The translations under genes and the position numbers were made by a program. A stretch of 64,000 nucleotides of DNA from Promethearchaeota archaeon (lineage in GTDB: Archaea; Asgardarchaeota; Lokiarchaeia; Sigyniarchaeales; SOKP01), in contig JBHLON010000017.1 of NCBI GenBank assembly GCA_048940445.1, forward strand, positions 1,574 through 65,573, read 5' to 3'. Of the stretch, positions 2,154-10,798 are shown one piece after another (the stretch's first letter is position 1; each line of letters opens with the position of its first letter). A model generated the notes under the pieces. The model saw only the letters and a list, made by a program, of their open reading frames with translations, was not told the origin of the DNA and made no database searches.

Positions 2154-3623
2154 TTGATATATGATGTCATTATAATTGGTGGTGGGGTAACTGGATGTTG
2201 TATAGCACGTACATTATCTAAATACAACCTGAAAATTTGTCTATTGGAAAAAGAAGCAGATATTGCAACTGGTACAACTAAGGCAAATTCTGGAGTTATC
2301 CACGCAGGTTATGGAGCCCCAAGGGAACATATAAGACGCAACTTTTGTATAAGGGGGAATAAACTCTATACCCAAGCAGCAGAAGAATTAAACTTTCCAT
2401 TTCAGAGAATTGGATCATTTGTAGTAGCTTTGGAAGACAATCAAATAAAGTTTCTTGAAGAGGAACGTAAACGTGGAATAGAGGATGGTATTCCAGGATT
2501 AGAACTTATACTAGATAAAGAAAAAATCAAATATATGGAACCTAATATCACAGATGATGTGATAGGTGTGTTACATGCCCCTACAGCTGGTATTGTAAGC
2601 CCTTATGAAATGACATTTGCTTTGGCTGAAAATGCTGCTATGAATGGGGTACAATTCTTCCGAAACCAAAAAGTCACTAAAATTAAACATCAAGATTATA
2701 TTTTTAAAATAAAGACCAAATCAGATGATTTTCAAGCGCGAAATGTGATTAATGCTGCTGGATTATATGCCGCTAAGGTCTCAAAGATGGTGGGCTTAGA
2801 GTCTTTTGAAATTATGCCAAGAAAGGGGGAATATATCTTATTTGATCGAAATGCAATGCATTTGAACAAAATTTTATTTCCAATACCCACTAAAGTGTCC
2901 AAAGGGATTTTGGTATGTCCAACGATTCATGGAAATACATTTGTTGGACCTAATGCTCAAAATATTACAGATAAGAAAGATATTTCGACAACAGAAGCTG
3001 GTTTGAAGGAAATAATTGAGGGTGGAAGACAATTAGTACCTAATTTACCATTAAGAGCCTCAATAAGAAATTTTGCAGGATTAAGGGCAGTACCAGATAC
3101 TTATGATTTCATTGTTGATAACACAGACATTTACGGCTTCATTAACGTTGCAGGGATTCTATCACCAGGATTAACTTCTTGTTATGCTATTGCCGAAAGA
3201 GTTATTGAATTTCTTCAATTACTGGGAGTTGAACTTAAAGAAAAAGAGGATTATAGTCCAAATCGCTCTAAACCAGAAAGGTTTAAGGATTTATCCAAAG
3301 CTGAACTAGATGCAAAGATAAAGGAAGATCCCAACTGGGCAAGAATTATTTGCCGGTGCGAAATGATCCCAGAAAAGGAAATAATAGATTCCATTCATAT
3401 GCGAGTAGGAGCTACAACCGTTGATGGTGTAAAATTCCGATGTCGCCCCGGCATGGGAAGATGCGGAGGTGGTTTTTGTCGCCCGCGTGTGATAGAAATT
3501 TTGTCCAGAGAATTAGGAATAACTTATGAAGAAGTTAGCAAAAGAGGAGAAGATACTTATTTTTTAATTGGTAAAACCAAAGATCTTCAACGTGACAAAA
3601 TTCAAGAAGGTGTTAATGAATGA
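2154..3623 (+). CDS. FAD-dependent glycerol-3-phosphate dehydrogenase-like oxidoreductase (GlpA/GlpD family) with BFD-like [2Fe-2S] domain
   Basis: TTG start. 'DVIIIGGGVTGCCIA' dinucleotide fold and C-terminal 'CRCEMIPEKEI...CRPGMGRCGGGFC' BFD-type cysteines. First gene of a three-gene unit. Confidence 0.75.
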   Translation: MIYDVIIIGGGVTGCCIARTLSKYNLKICLLEKEADIATGTTKANSGVIHAGYGAPREHIRRNFCIRGNKLYTQAAEELNFPFQRIGSFVVALEDNQIKFLEEERKRGIEDGIPGLELILDKEKIKYMEPNITDDVIGVLHAPTAGIVSPYEMTFALAENAAMNGVQFFRNQKVTKIKHQDYIFKIKTKSDDFQARNVINAAGLYAAKVSKMVGLESFEIMPRKGEYILFDRNAMHLNKILFPIPTKVSKGILVCPTIHGNTFVGPNAQNITDKKDISTTEAGLKEIIEGGRQLVPNLPLRASIRNFAGLRAVPDTYDFIVDNTDIYGFINVAGILSPGLTSCYAIAERVIEFLQLLGVELKEKEDYSPNRSKPERFKDLSKAELDAKIKEDPNWARIICRCEMIPEKEIIDSIHMRVGATTVDGVKFRCRPGMGRCGGGFCRPRVIEILSRELGITYEEVSKRGEDTYFLIGKTKDLQRDKIQEGVNE

Positions 3624-4918
3624 AGAAGTACAATACTGATGTTGTCGTTATAGGTTCGGGAGCAGCAGGTTTAGCTTCCGCTATTGAAGTAAAAAACGCA
3701 GATCTAAATGTCTTAATTATTGAGAGAGATAAAGAACTAGGTGGAATTACTTTACAATGTATTCATAATGGGTTTGGATTAAAAGAGTTTAAAGAAGAAT
3801 TAACAGGACCGGAATATATTCAGAGATTTATAAATCAAATAAAAGAACTGAAAATCCCATTTTTATTAGACACAATGGTTTTTGAAATTGCTAATGATAA
3901 GAAGTTATTTGCTGTTAATAAACAAGAAGGTCTTATAGAAATTGAAGCAAAATCAATAATTTTAGCTATGGGTTGTAGAGAAAGGACAAGAGGGGCAATC
4001 AATATACCTGGTTTCAGGCCTTCTGGAATTTATACAGCTGGGCAAGCTCAGCGATTTGTAAATATTGAGGGTTATTTACCAGGTACAACTTTTGTAATTT
4101 TAGGGAGTGGAGATATTGGAATGATAATGGCACGTAGATTAACATGGGAAGGTTGTAAAGTGAAAGCAGTAGTTGAGATACAACCCTATGTGAGTGGATT
4201 ATTAAGAAATCAAGTACAATGTTTGGAAGATTATGAAATTCCTCTGATCACCAGTTATACAGTCACTAAAATTCATGGAAGAGATAGAGTAAAAGGAGTT
4301 ACGATATCTAAAGTTGACAGAAATTTTGATCGTATTGTGGGTTCTGATAAATTCATCGAATGTGATACTTTACTATTATCAGTTGGATTAATTCCAGAAA
4401 ATGAATTAACCTTACAAGCAGGTGCAGAACTTTCTAAAAATGGTGGTCCAGTTGTTGATAATAACTTAGAAACGACTATTGAAGGGATTTTTGCATGTGG
4501 AAATGTGTTACAAGTGCATGATTTAGTTGATTTAGTTACAGCTGAAGCAAAACGAGCTGGGTTGAATGCTGTTGAATACATTATGAAAAGATATGGTAAA
4601 AAAATTAAGCCTCACAAAATGATTAAACTCATTCCTGGAGAAAATGTTAATTACATTAAACCTGATATAATAAACAATAACGATATATCCAAAGAACTTA
4701 TTTTCACTTTCAGAGTTAATTATCCTGATAGAAGAGTGCTTATCCAATTCAAAAATGAAGAAAATAATGTTATATATAAAAGAAAAAAGATATATGTGAT
4801 TCCGAGTGAAATGGTAGAATTGAGCATCAACCTAAAGAAAGAAGGTTTAAAACCTGATTGCAAGACAATTACAGTTGAAGTAATCCCTCGTCCAGAAGTA
4901 TTAATAGAAGAAGATTAA
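3620..4918 (+). CDS. NAD(P)/FAD-dependent pyridine nucleotide-disulfide oxidoreductase subunit
   Basis: ATGA start/stop overlap with the upstream gene. 'DVVVIGSGAAGLASA' and a second Rossmann motif 'FVILGSGDIGM'; 'FACGNV' near the C-terminus. Confidence 0.75.
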   Translation: MKKYNTDVVVIGSGAAGLASAIEVKNADLNVLIIERDKELGGITLQCIHNGFGLKEFKEELTGPEYIQRFINQIKELKIPFLLDTMVFEIANDKKLFAVNKQEGLIEIEAKSIILAMGCRERTRGAINIPGFRPSGIYTAGQAQRFVNIEGYLPGTTFVILGSGDIGMIMARRLTWEGCKVKAVVEIQPYVSGLLRNQVQCLEDYEIPLITSYTVTKIHGRDRVKGVTISKVDRNFDRIVGSDKFIECDTLLLSVGLIPENELTLQAGAELSKNGGPVVDNNLETTIEGIFACGNVLQVHDLVDLVTAEAKRAGLNAVEYIMKRYGKKIKPHKMIKLIPGENVNYIKPDIINNNDISKELIFTFRVNYPDRRVLIQFKNEENNVIYKRKKIYVIPSEMVELSINLKKEGLKPDCKTITVEVIPRPEVLIEED

Positions 4919-4934
4919 TGTGAAGTGATAAAAA

Positions 4935-5315
4935 ATGTCAGAATTAAGTACAATAAGAATAATTCGATGCATTGTATGCCCAACAGGCTGCGAGATAAAA
5001 GTTAAAAAAGATCCAAGCGATAAAGTAACATTTGAAGGTTATACTTGCGATCGGGGTTTAGAATATGCTCAACAGGAGTTCTATGAACCTAAGAGAATAC
5101 TTACTTCTACAATGCAAGTAAAACATGGTTTTTTACCCTTAATACCTGTAAGGACAGATAAAGCTATTCTTAAAGATCAATTAAAAAATGTAATGAAAGA
5201 AATAGCAAATGTAGAAGTAGAAGCTCCAATTAAAATGGGAGATATATTAATTGAAAATGTTCTTGGATTAGGAGCTAATATAATAGCAAGTAGAGATTTG
5301 AACAAAGAAGAATAG
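4935..5315 (+). CDS. DUF1667 domain protein (third subunit of the GlpA-like/NOX complex)
   Basis: 126 aa. 'CIVCPTGCEIKV...YTCDRGLEYAQQE' is the typical DUF1667 signature, in the conserved position after the two flavoproteins. Confidence 0.75.
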   Translation: MSELSTIRIIRCIVCPTGCEIKVKKDPSDKVTFEGYTCDRGLEYAQQEFYEPKRILTSTMQVKHGFLPLIPVRTDKAILKDQLKNVMKEIANVEVEAPIKMGDILIENVLGLGANIIASRDLNKEE

Positions 5316-5445: not shown

Positions 5446-5925
5446 ATGAAATTGAGAAATCATTTAAAAATGCCAGAAATGGATCAAATTTATAAAGTGG
5501 ATGAAAACCTATATATTGGAGCTTATTGGCCTAGGTTAAATTTTACGAAATTCAAAGAGCTTGGTATCACTGCAATAGTGAATTTAATGGAAGAAAATCT
5601 TTATGATCCAACAATTGAAGGTTTTGCCTATTTGCATAAAGGATTTCCTGATGATTGGTATCCTCCTCATAACTATATAAAGCAAATTTTGGAATTTATC
5701 GATAGAAACATTAGAAATGGAAAGGTCCTTGTACATTGTGCTATGGGAATAAGCAGATCTGGAGGAATAGTTGTAGCATGGCTAATGAAAAAACACCCTA
5801 AATGGACGTGGAAAGATGCCCTAGGATATGTAAATCAATCCAGATTGATATTTCCTGCTATTGAAATTAAGGAGTCTATTTTAGATTACTTTGAATCTAT
5901 AGAAGGAATAAGAAGAGAAATATAA
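5446..5925 (+). CDS. dual-specificity (Cys-based) protein phosphatase
   Basis: Active-site loop 'VHCAMGISRSGG' (HCxxGxxRS). Confidence 0.75.
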   Translation: MKLRNHLKMPEMDQIYKVDENLYIGAYWPRLNFTKFKELGITAIVNLMEENLYDPTIEGFAYLHKGFPDDWYPPHNYIKQILEFIDRNIRNGKVLVHCAMGISRSGGIVVAWLMKKHPKWTWKDALGYVNQSRLIFPAIEIKESILDYFESIEGIRREI

Positions 5926-6009: not shown

Positions 6010-6339
6010 ATGTCATTTTTTGAGGAGAAAGTACTATCACTACTAGAACAAATTAGTGAGAAGTTAGATAAACTTCTTGAACCAATTACCATCAAAACTA
6101 CTCAAATTGATAACATGACTAGTGAAAGAACTGTTAAACCATCATCAGTGGTGGAAAAGCAAGAAGAGGAAGAAAAGGCATTGGAACATCCTCCTATTGA
6201 AGGTAGGAGGGTTTGTCCAGATTGTGCGAGTACTGATTTTAGAACTGAAGAAGATAAAAGTCAGGTTTTACACCAGATGGGTGGAATTAAAATATACGCC
6301 AAAAAGTATATTTGTAAACGTTGTGGTAAGGTTTTATAA
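6010..6339 (+). CDS. small zinc-ribbon protein (hypothetical)
   Basis: 109 aa. Acidic linker followed by CPDC...CKRC. Confidence 0.45.
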   Translation: MSFFEEKVLSLLEQISEKLDKLLEPITIKTTQIDNMTSERTVKPSSVVEKQEEEEKALEHPPIEGRRVCPDCASTDFRTEEDKSQVLHQMGGIKIYAKKYICKRCGKVL

Positions 6340-6778: not shown

Positions 6779-7399
6779 TTGACAAATGTAGATATTATAC
6801 TTCAGATAATGTTTATTAGTATTGGCATGGTAGCTTTAAGTTTATTGCTTAATAGAATTTTGGGAATAAATCTTGGTACTGCTAGAGAATTAAGACAAAA
6901 AGCGCTTAATCTTCAGGTACGTATGAGAACTGCTCAAGTAACTGCGAATGTTCAAGAAATCATTAAATTGCAACAAGAATCTACTGCTTTAATGAAGCAA
7001 ATGATGAAAAAACAATTACTTCCCTCATGTCTAAGATGTGTCGTCTTTCTCGGAATTTTTGCCATAATTGCAGTATTCTATGCCAATTATTCAGCTGGCC
7101 TTTTACCCTTCTTTATACCTCTTCTTGGAGATGGTTGGGTGGCACTATACTTCCTTTTTTCTCTTGGTTTTTCTCTATTAGCATATGGATTAAAAATATT
7201 GTATAGAAAAGTAACAGGTAAAACGGATTCTAGAACTAAAATCTCAAAAGAAATAATGAATGCATTATCTCCAGGATCGGAGGAAACGGAAACAGGCTTC
7301 CAATTAACTAGGCAATTACCATCATCCTCAGATGAAACTTTACAAGAAGAAAATACTGAAAAACCTGATTCATGGAAAGATAGGATCAAAAAGCCATAA
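6779..7399 (+). CDS. DUF106 / EMC3-TMCO1-like membrane protein (archaeal Oxa1/YidC-superfamily insertase candidate)
   Basis: TTG start (alternative ATG at 6809). The layout is TM1, then an amphipathic coiled region 'ARELRQKALNLQ...LQQESTALMKQMMKKQ', then TM2/TM3 and a polar tail. Confidence 0.5.
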   Translation: MTNVDIILQIMFISIGMVALSLLLNRILGINLGTARELRQKALNLQVRMRTAQVTANVQEIIKLQQESTALMKQMMKKQLLPSCLRCVVFLGIFAIIAVFYANYSAGLLPFFIPLLGDGWVALYFLFSLGFSLLAYGLKILYRKVTGKTDSRTKISKEIMNALSPGSEETETGFQLTRQLPSSSDETLQEENTEKPDSWKDRIKKP

Positions 7400-7439
7400 T
7401 TTGGGATACAGTAAAAAGTTATTAATAATCTATTTAGAT

Positions 7440-7763
7440 ATGAGATATTACAAAATAATATTTATTGGATTAATAATTATTTCAATAATTTTTTTGGTTT
7501 TGGGTTTCATTTTAGGGGACTTATTCATCTTGTTTCCTTCTTTCTTTATTTTGCCTCTTTCTTGCGGTGTCAGAAGAAGAGATGAAGAAACTACAGAAAC
7601 CGAAATTAATTCTTATGGGGACGTAGAGAATCATAAAAATCAGCAACAACATGATATGCAAAATTCCAACATTAATGAAAAAAGATGTTCAGCGTGTAAT
7701 AATATCATCTCAGAACAAAATTTAAGATTCTGTCCTTATTGTGGAAAAAGAGTTAAACAGTAA
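7440..7763 (+). CDS. membrane protein with C-terminal zinc ribbon (hypothetical)
   Basis: The internal ATG at 7440 avoids overlap with the upstream gene. Two TM helices, then 'CSACNN...CPYCG'. Confidence 0.45.
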   Translation: MRYYKIIFIGLIIISIIFLVLGFILGDLFILFPSFFILPLSCGVRRRDEETTETEINSYGDVENHKNQQQHDMQNSNINEKRCSACNNIISEQNLRFCPYCGKRVKQ

Positions 7764-8439: not shown

Positions 8440-9714
8440 ATGCCAGATGAACCAAACAATCAAAAAGATGAAGATGAATCAATTTCAGAAGCATTATCGT
8501 CTCTTGGTTGGGTAGAAGAAAAGGAGGAAGTTGATAAACCTATAGTGGAGAAAGGAAATCTTCAAGAACAATTGGATTATTTAAGTGAACAAAATAAAAA
8601 ACTAAATGAGCAAATTGTAAAATTATCAGGAGAAATAGAAAAAAAAGGGAATGATCATAAGTTTCTATTGCAAGAAAATGAAAAACTTCAGCAACTTGCT
8701 GATCAAAATAATACTACTATAGAAAATTTACTTCAAACAATTGTAAAGAAAGATGATTTAATAAAAGAATTAGAATCACAAATAAAGGATACTTCAGAGT
8801 CCACTCAAAAGGATATAGAGTTGAATGAACTCGTTGAGAATAAAAATGAAGAAATTAATAAGTTAAGCGGGCAATTAGAAACACAAGAGAAAGAAATAGA
8901 AAAATTAAATTCCTCAATCACCGATAAAAATCAATTACTACAAAACCAAACAAATGAAATAGATAATTTGAATGATACACTACAAGAATTAAAACAAAAA
9001 AATCAAACATTAGAGAAAGAACTCGAGCAATTAAAGTCTCAACAATCTGTAAATAAAGAATTAGTTGAGAGATTGAATGAAAAAGATAGTAAACTTAAAG
9101 AACTCCTAGAACAAGTACAATATCTTGAAAAAGACACTGTTCAAAAGTCTAAATTCGATAAACTTCAGGTGCTTTTAGAAAAAAAAGATGAAGTAATAAC
9201 TGAAAAAGAAAAAACTATTTTCTCAATTGATAACAATTTAGAAACAGCAAATAATAAAATAAAAGAGCTCCAACAACAGGTCGAAACATTTAGTTTGATG
9301 AAGAAAGATCTTGAGAAAAAAGAGGAAAGAATAAAAGAACTAGTTTTAGAAATTGAAAAGCTAACTCAAAAGGATAAAACCCGTGAAGAATATATAAATC
9401 GAATAGAAAAACAATTAGAAGAGTCCCAGGAAAAATCTGGTAGTATAATCGGAAAAGTTGAATTGGAAATTGCAAGCCTGCGTAACATTATCGAAGAACA
9501 AACCATTGAAATTAAAGATCTAAAAAAACAAGATACTCTCTTAAAGAATAAACTCTATGAAGCAGAACAGATTGAAGATAGAATCTTAGGAGAAATGCAG
9601 AATGTAAAGGATTCAAGATTAAAGTTACAATCTGAAATAGAAAAAAAAGATATAGAAATTATTGAATTAAAGAAAAAAATCAAATTGATGCGTAGAGATT
9701 TACAAAAGCCCTAA
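8440..9714 (+). CDS. long acidic coiled-coil protein (hypothetical)
   Basis: 424 aa, rich in E/K/L/Q/N with heptad-like composition throughout. No TM helix or enzymatic motif. Confidence 0.55.
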   Translation: MPDEPNNQKDEDESISEALSSLGWVEEKEEVDKPIVEKGNLQEQLDYLSEQNKKLNEQIVKLSGEIEKKGNDHKFLLQENEKLQQLADQNNTTIENLLQTIVKKDDLIKELESQIKDTSESTQKDIELNELVENKNEEINKLSGQLETQEKEIEKLNSSITDKNQLLQNQTNEIDNLNDTLQELKQKNQTLEKELEQLKSQQSVNKELVERLNEKDSKLKELLEQVQYLEKDTVQKSKFDKLQVLLEKKDEVITEKEKTIFSIDNNLETANNKIKELQQQVETFSLMKKDLEKKEERIKELVLEIEKLTQKDKTREEYINRIEKQLEESQEKSGSIIGKVELEIASLRNIIEEQTIEIKDLKKQDTLLKNKLYEAEQIEDRILGEMQNVKDSRLKLQSEIEKKDIEIIELKKKIKLMRRDLQKP

Positions 9715-9784: not shown

Positions 9785-10798
9785 CTACTTTTCCCGCCAT
9801 TCTATTCCGCATTGCCCACAGCGGTATTTTTTGCCATACATTCTAGGATAATCCAGAATTATATTGCCTTTATCAACACTCTCATGAATCAACATTTTAT
9901 CCTCATTTCCACATTTAGGGCATTTTCGGCGGCCCTCTGTCTTTTCAATGGTTAATAGGTCATCAGCAGAACCAGGAATACCCGGAGCGGCCCCTGAAGG
10001 ACTTGCAGATTTTAATTCTGCAATGTCTGCTTTTATTTCTTCTGGTGTCACATCTGTAATTACTGCTTTTGTTTCAGATTTAATTGTAGCTGCCATTCTA
10101 TCTGCTTCAGTTTCGGGTTCTAACTCAGACTCTGCTCTCAATTGAACAGCATCAGATTCCTTATAATGTTCCCCTCGCTCTAAAGCAGCTAGAAACTCTG
10201 CATCATCACCTTCTTCAAATATTGTTTCATTCTGAAGCCCAGGGCGATTGGCATCGATTTCACGAGCCCATTGACCTGATTTTACTTTTTCTTTGACATT
10301 ACATTGTGAACCTTGCCATATATAAACCTTATTACCCAGATCAGCTAAAAAACAATCTTCAGTATCTAAGGAAGCTTTAGAAAACGGAACTTGAACCATT
10401 TTCATGGCGTTTATACCTTCGAACTCTTCAGAAGATACCCTATATAAAACATTAACATGTTCAGTAAATCCTGCCCAATCACCAGTAACCACATCTTTTA
10501 AAAGTGTTTTTGCAACATTTTTTTCCACAACTTTAACAGTTCCTAGTGAACTGATAGCTTTTAGATATTCTGCGGACTCTAAGCCCTCATCAATTGTAAT
10601 TATTTTAGCAGCACCACCTCTTTCTTGATCTAACCGTCTTGCTTGAGCAGCTCCGCTTGTCTTCTCATCAACTGAACATTTACTTCCGATCCAAACGTAG
10701 ATTGTTTTTTGGTCATCAAGAAGGTAAACGTCTCCTTTTGATAGAACGGGATTATTGATCTCATTAAGTTCCCCCTTATTGACCAAATATAGTTTCAT
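9785..10798 (-). CDS. two-domain gelsolin/villin-fold protein with C-terminal zinc ribbon
   Basis: Two gelsolin-repeat signatures: 'GDVYLLDDQKTIYVWIGSKCSVDEKTSGAAQARRL' and 'EDCFLADLGNKVYIWQGSQCNVKEKVKSGQWAREI'. An acidic/Pro-rich linker follows, then 'CPKCGN...CGQCG'. Confidence 0.7.
   Translation of the reverse strand: MKLYLVNKGELNEINNPVLSKGDVYLLDDQKTIYVWIGSKCSVDEKTSGAAQARRLDQERGGAAKIITIDEGLESAEYLKAISSLGTVKVVEKNVAKTLLKDVVTGDWAGFTEHVNVLYRVSSEEFEGINAMKMVQVPFSKASLDTEDCFLADLGNKVYIWQGSQCNVKEKVKSGQWAREIDANRPGLQNETIFEEGDDAEFLAALERGEHYKESDAVQLRAESELEPETEADRMAATIKSETKAVITDVTPEEIKADIAELKSASPSGAAPGIPGSADDLLTIEKTEGRRKCPKCGNEDKMLIHESVDKGNIILDYPRMYGKKYRCGQCGIEWREK

Follow-up and report, generated by a model that had tools for sequence, protein, structure and literature searches.

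The gelsolins closest to the protein described here are the "extended" two-domain gelsolins (2DGels) of Lokiarchaeia studied by Akil et al. (2022, Commun Biol 5:890; PMC9433394). Their commonest layout includes a first gelsolin domain (D1), a WH2-like motif, a second gelsolin domain (D2), a linker of 69 aa (Link), and a potential Zn-binding domain. The same work reports in-vitro actin assays and the crystal structure of a closely related full-length ortholog in complex with two actins (PMC9433394). Actin and several Ca2+ ions are bound by D1, the WH2-like segment, D2, and the proximal part of the linker. On actin, some 20 residues at the start of the linker adopt an ordered conformation, and the main chain of Leu220 contributes a Ca2+ ligand (PMC9433394). 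Two orthologs, Loki2DGel and MKD1-2DGel, bind actin in a Ca2+-dependent manner and sever, cap, or sequester it (PMC9433394). The WH2-like motif is LVDV in GC14_75 and MKD1 (PMC9433394); LKDV is reported for L. ossiferum.

The Zn domain was only modelled by Akil et al. (PMC9433394). The same study finds it C-terminally on multi-domain Loki proteins that are otherwise unrelated, and also as a separate protein of 64 residues, and states that it is not consistently detected beyond Loki. The isolated Zn domain of Loki2DGel showed no association with rabbit F-actin (PMC9433394). Thor2DGel has no C-terminal extension at all, and Heim2DGel carries an unrelated charged helical tail but no zinc ribbon (PMC9433394).

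The window analyzed here is a stretch of 64,000 nucleotides of a Promethearchaeota archaeon (contig JBHLON010000017.1). The ORF listing of the window gives the gelsolin gene as a single ORF with an ATG start at 9785..10798 on the minus strand, which encodes 337 aa. Its best match among PDB sequences is chain G of 7WHG, “Lokiarchaeota gelsolin (2DGel)”, with residues 1-337 aligned to 1-335 at E 1.7e-156. At least 40 further PDB matches are to gelsolin, villin, CapG, and severin. The two-domain core, the WH2-like linker, and the Ca2+ sites are shared with Thor2DGel and Heim2DGel (7C2G, 7C2H, 7WHF; E 1.9e-22 and 1.2e-19). The repeat fold is also that of eukaryotic villin and gelsolin (horse plasma gelsolin 1D0N, villin 9JUS; E 6.8e-30 to 2.4e-23).

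It is practically certain that the gene is an ortholog of Loki2DGel. The order D1, WH2-like motif, D2, Link, Zn is the same as in Loki2DGel (Lokiarchaeota GC14_75, KKK44901.1) and in MKD1-2DGel, and so are the Ca-site signatures, the proximal linker, and the (CxxC)2 ribbon. The differences are those of another species: 337 aa instead of 335 aa, many substituted positions, LKDV instead of LVDV, and another sequence of the distal linker. The sequence features of the extended Loki 2DGels were found: collinearity over the full length, Link and Zn included, the WH2-like motif, the conserved first ~20 residues of the linker, and (Cys-X-X-Cys)2 with the hairpin Tyr. The D1-D2-Link-Zn architecture is thus already known and is not new. 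The original prediction, made from the letters of the window, treated the terminal ribbon as an extra element of open role. As a reading this holds; as a novelty it does not, because the exact architecture was published in 2022 and the question is already posed in PMC9433394.

The ORF encodes two gelsolin repeats, an acidic linker, and a C-terminal zinc ribbon. Domain 1 (residues 1-90; 10529..10798, minus strand) contains the best stretch of the Pfam Gelsolin profile PF00626 (residues 19-77) and aligns with D1 of 7WHG_G. The inter-domain segment (residues 91-113; 10460..10528, minus strand) carries the WH2-like motif LKDV at 100-103. Domain 2 (residues 114-208; 10175..10459, minus strand) contains the second PF00626 stretch and aligns with G1-G2 of human and horse gelsolin. 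The profile, at E 1.9e-25 and 88.9 bits (cut-off 21), therefore passes its curated cut-off in two copies, which places the protein in the gelsolin superfamily. Two gelsolin repeats had been proposed before any search, with motifs that start at residues 26 and 151. The two PF00626 stretches, the PDB-sequence alignments, and the presence of both motifs bear this out, and the gelsolin fold, whose absence from profile searches had been named as a refutation, is recovered by them.

Type-II Ca2+ signatures occur in both domains, G22-D23...E45 in domain 1 and E147-D148...E170 in domain 2, each within a stretch aligned to 7WHG_G. We take these residues to be Ca2+ ligand positions on the basis of the Loki2DGel study and of gelsolins in general. 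An alignment of 40 orthologs was used to assess conservation. G22, D23, D44, E45, and K46 are invariant in it, as are E147, D148, and E170. In the LKDV motif L100, D102, and V103 are invariant, and K101 is conserved in at least 90% of the orthologs. The protein keeps the segments and the signature residues with which its orthologs contact actin and Ca2+.

The linker spans 81 aa (residues 209-289). Its proximal part (residues 209-229, YKESDAVQLRAES-LE; 10112..10174, minus strand) is strongly conserved, with 12 residues invariant among the 40 orthologs (G209, Y212, E214, S215, D216, A217, Q219, L220, A222, S224, L226, E227). The distal acidic part occupies residues 230-289 (9932..10111, minus strand). 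The pre-ribbon motif S-x-S-x-A-x-PG-x-PG is conserved in it (S268, A270, P272, G273, P275, and G276 are invariant), and the rest varies among the 40 orthologs in both length and sequence. The linker is rich in Glu, Ala, Ser, and Thr and has a pI of 4.3. The description of the linker as acidic and rich in Glu and Ala was correct; its supposed length of ~90 aa and its richness in Pro were not, since there are 81 residues with 5 Pro only. In the full-length AF2 model (pLDDT 64) the gelsolin domains reach 70-85, the inter-domain segment is of low confidence, and the linker stays below 50, i.e., it is predicted to be disordered.

The ribbon covers residues 290-337 (9788..9931, minus strand) and runs RRKCPKC...long beta-hairpin (tip DYPR)...YGKKYRCGQCG-EWREK. 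The predicted pair of CxxC knuckles at the C-terminus is present, as CPKC at 293-296 and CGQC at 327-330. The conservation of these cysteines was the other point on which the original prediction could have failed, and all four (C293, C296, C327, C330) are invariant in the 40 orthologs, together with Y317 and Y321; P318, R319, G322, and the final WREK are conserved as well.

The ribbon (the last 48 residues) is basic, with a pI of 9.2, against 4.8 for the gelsolin core and 4.3 for the linker. These complementary charges would suit an intramolecular regulator, in which the ribbon folds back on the acidic core or linker and gates actin binding in the manner of the C-terminal latch of eukaryotic gelsolin; charged tails may indeed add calcium regulation according to Akil et al. 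(PMC9433394). Such a latch is highly improbable. The linker is variable in length and sequence among the 40 orthologs. The same ribbon occurs alone and on unrelated proteins, which means that its conserved surface cannot specifically recognize the gelsolin core.

Villin similarly appends a small C-terminal module to a gelsolin core by a flexible linker. Unlike villin and gelsolin, which have three or six repeats, the present protein has two, and its module is a C4 zinc ribbon and not a three-helix headpiece. A villin headpiece (VHP) was absent: Pfam gave no match to it at E up to 1, and the model of the C-terminal domain is all-beta.

The gene belongs to a conserved family. A search gave 423 homologs, the best 120 of which are 318-362 aa long and match over the full length at 70-94% identity; those sources that name a lineage for these 120 place them in Promethearchaeota (Asgard). 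Among genomes of the window's order with completeness of at least 88%, a D1-D2 ortholog (E <= 1e-60) is encoded in 101 of 108, mostly in a single copy, by open frames of ~304-385 aa except for a few cut at contig ends. An aminotransferase gene lies upstream on the same strand. Downstream there is a convergent gene for a coiled-coil protein of 407-443 aa, followed by genes for GtrA and for an EMC3/TMCO1-like membrane protein. This order recurs in two other genomes. Throughout the window's order the gelsolin gene is single-copy and syntenic. The window's genome also encodes four actin-family proteins (best 442 bits) and two further gelsolin-domain genes; its Lokiactin gene is located at L018:1474-2616.

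The fold of the ribbon was modelled with AF2 from 110 aligned copies (pLDDT 88). The model is a beta-ribbon that begins with a short strand and ends in another one; between the knuckles lies a long hairpin of 12 + 8 residues whose tip is DYPR. None of the 110 copies deviates at the four Cys. From these cysteines and the modelled fold we predict a C4 zinc-binding domain. No curated Pfam or NCBIfam model matches the ribbon, its paralogs, or its stand-alone homologs at the cut-off, and below it there are generic zinc ribbons only. The nearest solved structures are TFIIS domain III, Rpb9/TFS, NrdR, RNase P Rpp21, and ribosomal ribbons. Foldseek against the PDB gave generic zinc ribbons only (best E 0.29, TM 0.51), which carry no functional weight, and VIA-align gave generic ribbons at Z <= 4.0 (TFIIS 3.2-3.5, Rpb9 2.6), a range typical of a common arrangement.

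One might read these neighbors as a sign that the domain is a ribbon of the TFIIS/TFS/Rpb9 type, which binds nucleic acid or RNA polymerase and ties the gelsolin to transcription or RNA. The modelled three-stranded ribbon with its long hairpin between the CxxC knuckles resembles TFIIS domain III, TFS, and Rpb9, and so does the spacing CPxCG...YxCxxCGxxW. The nearest folds (TFIIS domain III, Rpb9/TFS, NrdR, and ribosomal ribbons) appear at Foldseek E 0.29-0.6, TM ~0.5, and VIA Z 2.5-4.0; there are sub-threshold matches to TFS_arch and to a Zn-ribbon RNA-binding protein; the domain is basic; and some sources label the orthologs “RNA polymerase subunit M/TFIIS”. However, these matches fall far under the family cut-offs: TFS_arch reaches 17.9 bits where 64.75 are required, too few for a TFIIS/TFS match, PF01096 is not among the Pfam matches of the gelsolin, and the Z values are uninformative. 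The hairpin tip is DYPR, in contrast to the acidic tip of TFIIS. The context is cytoskeletal and not transcriptional: the domain is fused to gelsolin, coiled coils, and a small GTPase, not to nucleic-acid enzymes, and six of eight carriers in another genome co-purify with Lokiactin according to the available part of a co-immunoprecipitation table discussed below. We consider a function of the TFIIS type very unlikely.

To find other carriers, the window's own genome was searched with the last 60 residues of the gelsolin and then with a profile. It encodes 10 proteins with the Zn domain, and in 10/10 the domain stands at the very C-terminus. Besides the gelsolin they are two stand-alone ribbons of 64 and 57 aa, a protein of 86 aa from its first ATG (in an open frame of 179 aa), a protein of 109 aa, four mainly coiled-coil proteins, and a 304-aa protein without an assigned type. 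The 109-aa protein is encoded in the window itself at 6010..6339 on the plus strand, 3.4 kb from the gelsolin gene; it consists of an N-terminal helix, an acidic linker, and the ribbon (HMM iteration E 4.8e-21; match at G000:C2:7766-7900 in the own-genome search). All 10 paralogs share the four Cys as well as one Asp and one Tyr. The nearest paralog of the gelsolin ribbon is the 64-aa stand-alone protein, which is 76% identical to it, the pre-ribbon strand included. Pfam found nothing in the partner regions of these carriers besides coiled-coil look-alikes.

A profile search against 1.84 billion representatives gave 546 clusters at 50% identity (E <= 0.001). Among the best 150 of the 546, the domain lies at most 12 residues from the C-terminus in 147, occurs in two copies in 10, and stands alone in 14. 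Pfam assigned no family or a coiled coil to most of these 150, and otherwise one Ras/Roc GTPase, one TPR, and one gelsolin. A separate “longer” search with the profile gave gelsolins almost exclusively. The ribbon is an autonomous module, expanded in this lineage, that keeps its four Cys without exception and a strictly C-terminal position.

We surveyed 301 genomes of the phylum for the ribbon. It is present in 68/68 genomes of the window's family, with 3-13 matches each, and in 7/7 genomes of the sister family, with 4-9 each; the class is represented by two more genomes, which carry 2-3 copies. In other classes, sixteen families have exactly one copy (E 1e-6 to 1e-16), and within the same 301 genomes the ribbon was not found in several other families, e.g., in 0/76, 0/19, and 0/21 genomes. 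The single copy was inspected in five genomes of other classes. It is a stand-alone frame of 50-68 aa with the pattern CPKCG...DK...Y-K...C-DCG-EW, and in these five genomes it has no conserved neighbors, only unrelated metabolic genes. The single stand-alone ribbon beyond Loki extends the statement in PMC9433394.

Another possible role of the ribbon is that of an oligomerisation module, homotypic or heterotypic, in which Zn domains pair and the gelsolin is an adaptor that brings other carriers to actin. Several observations are in line with such pairing: the closest paralog of the gelsolin ribbon is a stand-alone one, the small 109-aa carrier is encoded near the gelsolin gene in the window, and a gene for a stand-alone ribbon is the tail-to-tail neighbor of the gelsolin gene in a 4.4-Mb genome assembled as a single contig (G210) and is located four genes from it in another genome (G316). 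Ten of the 150 best cluster representatives have two tags, and coiled-coil carriers would present tags in pairs. However, neither the Loki nor the MKD1 2DGel, assayed at full length, bundled actin in low-speed pelleting (PMC9433394), and a dimerising tail predicts otherwise. Outside Lokiarchaeia there is one stand-alone copy and the gelsolins have no tag, therefore heterotypic pairing cannot be the ancestral role. On balance we regard oligomerisation as an unlikely role of the ribbon.

Data on Lokiactin partners are provided by a Lokiactin co-immunoprecipitation (Co-IP) table of ~1,480 rows, ~650 of which were listed in the version available to us (bioRxiv 10.1101/2025.11.30.690169). The same 2025 preprint, which deals with L. 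ossiferum B35, lists the two 2DGels of this strain under the tags GNAMCCOK_04136 and 02589. G316, a genome of the window's order in one contig of 6,035,313 bp, has two gelsolin matches, at 4.784 and 3.040 Mb. Since these positions fit the two tags, we infer that G316 is L. ossiferum B35. G316 holds 8 Zn-domain ORFs; sequence comparison clearly links several of them to carriers among the ten in the window's genome. The ORFs were assigned to Co-IP rows through their molecular weight and gene index, not their accession, so the mapping depends on this identification of the genome. Computed and listed masses differ by at most 0.03 kDa; interpolation gives the gene index exactly or within one for four carriers and within ~1.5% for 04980 and 05159.

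Six of the 8 Zn-domain ORFs of the presumed L. ossiferum genome were matched to rows of the available table. The gelsolin (04136, 36.6 kDa) has a log2 actin/IgG of 3.97 at adjusted p 0.015, and a repeat protein (05159, 43.78 kDa) has 3.85 at 0.066. Two stand-alone ribbons are enriched as well: 03900 (6.54 kDa; 2.53, adjusted p 0.004) and 04132 (7.37 kDa; 1.74, adjusted p 0.029), the latter being the one encoded four genes from the gelsolin. The remaining two rows are a coiled-coil protein (04980, 44.64 kDa; 2.10, adjusted p 0.001) and a protein with a low-complexity N-terminal part and the ribbon (00612, 36.98 kDa; 1.91, adjusted p 0.012). All six are among the top 54 non-contaminant rows of ~1,480, which corresponds to a hypergeometric P of ~5e-8, or 6e-6 if only the ~650 rows listed are counted. 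Two G316 carriers (39.87 and 57.24 kDa) were not found among the ~650 rows listed under several spellings of the mass; they may have escaped detection, may have a different annotated start, or may lie in the remaining 841 rows. Stronger rows among those listed were considered as candidate hubs: one of 56.41 kDa fits a 488-aa helical-repeat protein, and one of 20.61 kDa has five equally good ORF candidates.

Two of the six enriched carriers have no domain other than the ribbon, and for this reason the ribbon alone appears to be enough to bring a protein into the Lokiactin immunoprecipitate. As far as the listed part of the table goes, this re-reading of the Co-IP data narrows the partner of the ribbon to the actin network. 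Because six of eight carriers co-purify with Lokiactin in these rows, the two stand-alone ribbons included, we read the tag as placing its carriers in an actin-associated network. We somewhat favor the view that the ribbon is a docking tag which ties its carriers to the archaeal actin network. The flexible acidic linker would be a leash that holds the small basic C4 ribbon away from the gelsolin core. The tag, C-terminal on about ten proteins per genome, would place its carriers in the actin-associated network, so that the tagged gelsolin could be concentrated where filaments need remodelling. Stand-alone ribbons could compete for the same docking site.

Several points speak against docking. 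One is the failure of the isolated Zn domain to associate with rabbit F-actin; another is the dependence of the Co-IP mapping on the identification of G316. Co-purification does not amount to direct contact, and proteins that are small and basic may stick. In the listed part of the table, row 05159 has an adjusted p of only 0.066 and two of the eight carriers are not among the rows. The stand-alone homolog outside Lokiarchaeia has no conserved neighbors that would point to actin.

Eukaryotes anchor actin regulators, coiled coils, and small GTPases through their C-termini. The carriers of the ribbon (an actin regulator, a small GTPase, and long coiled coils) are of the same types, and so it might be a peripheral membrane or lipid anchor that tethers them by their C-termini. 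Its strictly C-terminal position behind a flexible linker, the conserved basic and aromatic residues (RR, KK, Y, W), and the expression of phosphoinositide synthesis enzymes in L. ossiferum agree with this. The sequence has no hydrophobic stretch between the knuckles, though, and searches gave no above-noise similarity to lipid-binding zinc modules of the FYVE, C1, or LITAF type. The Co-IP enrichment in the available rows is compatible with both partners but favors actin over membranes. Anchoring to lipid is quite unlikely in our opinion.

The docking tag leaves a choice of partner. Since the isolated Zn domain did not associate with rabbit F-actin, any actin binding would have to involve a surface specific to archaeal actin, G-actin, or a partner in between. 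That the ribbon binds Lokiactin itself is possible, though doubtful. The stronger form of this proposal, namely that the C4 ribbon is an Asgard-specific, previously unrecognised actin-binding or actin-network docking domain which contacts Lokiactin directly, we put forward only tentatively. The ribbon would then go back to one ~55-aa protein, present across many Asgard lineages, and would later have been copied in Lokiarchaeia onto gelsolin, long coiled coils, and a small GTPase. Rabbit F-actin would fail as a partner because the contact surface is archaeal-specific.

Taken as a whole, a Loki2DGel ortholog whose ribbon is an actin-network docking tag is the best explanation of the locus, with a probability of about 0.75. 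The gene itself is a further ortholog in a family whose structure has been solved by crystallography and whose biochemistry is published, and the remaining interest lies in its zinc-ribbon tail. If the ribbon is a docking tag, its coiled-coil, GTPase, and stand-alone carriers would be a ready list of candidate archaeal actin-associated proteins. If it contacts actin directly, about ten proteins per genome would make up a hidden archaeal actin-associated set. A docking tag of this kind would bear on the complexity of the actin cytoskeleton before eukaryogenesis.

The gelsolin gene in the window is accompanied by a small gene whose product ends in the same zinc ribbon. This gene (6010..6339, plus strand) lies 3.4 kb from the gelsolin gene and encodes a 109-aa paralog in a single uninterrupted frame. 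A helix at the N-terminus and an acidic segment precede its ribbon, in which all four cysteines are kept. G210, a genome of 4.4 Mb in one contig, has a gene for a ribbon without other domains tail to tail with the gene of the gelsolin with a zinc ribbon, at a gap of about 180 bp (G210:C1:4004421-4004941). In G316, the single-contig genome inferred to be that of L. ossiferum B35, a stand-alone ribbon is found four genes from the gelsolin (G316:C1:4779080-4784548). Thus the linkage of a gelsolin and a small ribbon gene is recurrent in three lineages.

The slot convergent with the gelsolin gene is occupied in the window by a gene for a 424-aa protein (8440..9714, plus strand) that is predicted to form a coiled coil over nearly its whole length and has no zinc ribbon. 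The same slot holds a gene for a protein of 407-443 aa in two other genomes that share the gelsolin neighbourhood; these proteins have no Pfam match.

Another zinc ribbon, unlike that of the gelsolin, is located at the C-terminus of a 143-aa ORF (7332..7763, plus strand), with sub-threshold matches to Zn_ribbon_3, NOB1 and DZR. This ORF overlaps the end of an EMC3/TMCO1-like ORF (6779..7399), and a GtrA-like gene directly adjoins it. The window also includes a row of genes (2154..5315, plus strand) for an FAD-dependent oxidoreductase that carries a BFD-like 2Fe-2S domain, for a pyridine-nucleotide disulphide oxidoreductase and for a DUF1667 protein; this row is similar to the anaerobic glycerol-3-phosphate dehydrogenase set. 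It is followed by a gene for a dual-specificity protein phosphatase (DSPc; 5446..5925, plus strand).

Two G316 proteins were matched to rows of the Lokiactin co-immunoprecipitation table (bioRxiv 10.1101/2025.11.30.690169). A 374-aa ribbon carrier encoded at the end of the chromosome (G316:C1:6033933-6035069, minus strand) is built mostly from the octapeptide KAKEEADR repeated in tandem, seems to carry the ribbon twice and was matched to row 05159 (log2 3.85). A 488-aa protein with about eight helical repeats of about 55 aa each (L036:14364-15827, at about 4.727 Mb, minus strand) is consistent in mass (56.45 kDa) and position with GNAMCCOK_04085, whose row is among the strongest and best-covered matches (log2 4.5, 44 peptides) and which is not discussed in the portions of the preprint text that were examined. 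This protein may be an unrecognised actin-associated repeat protein.
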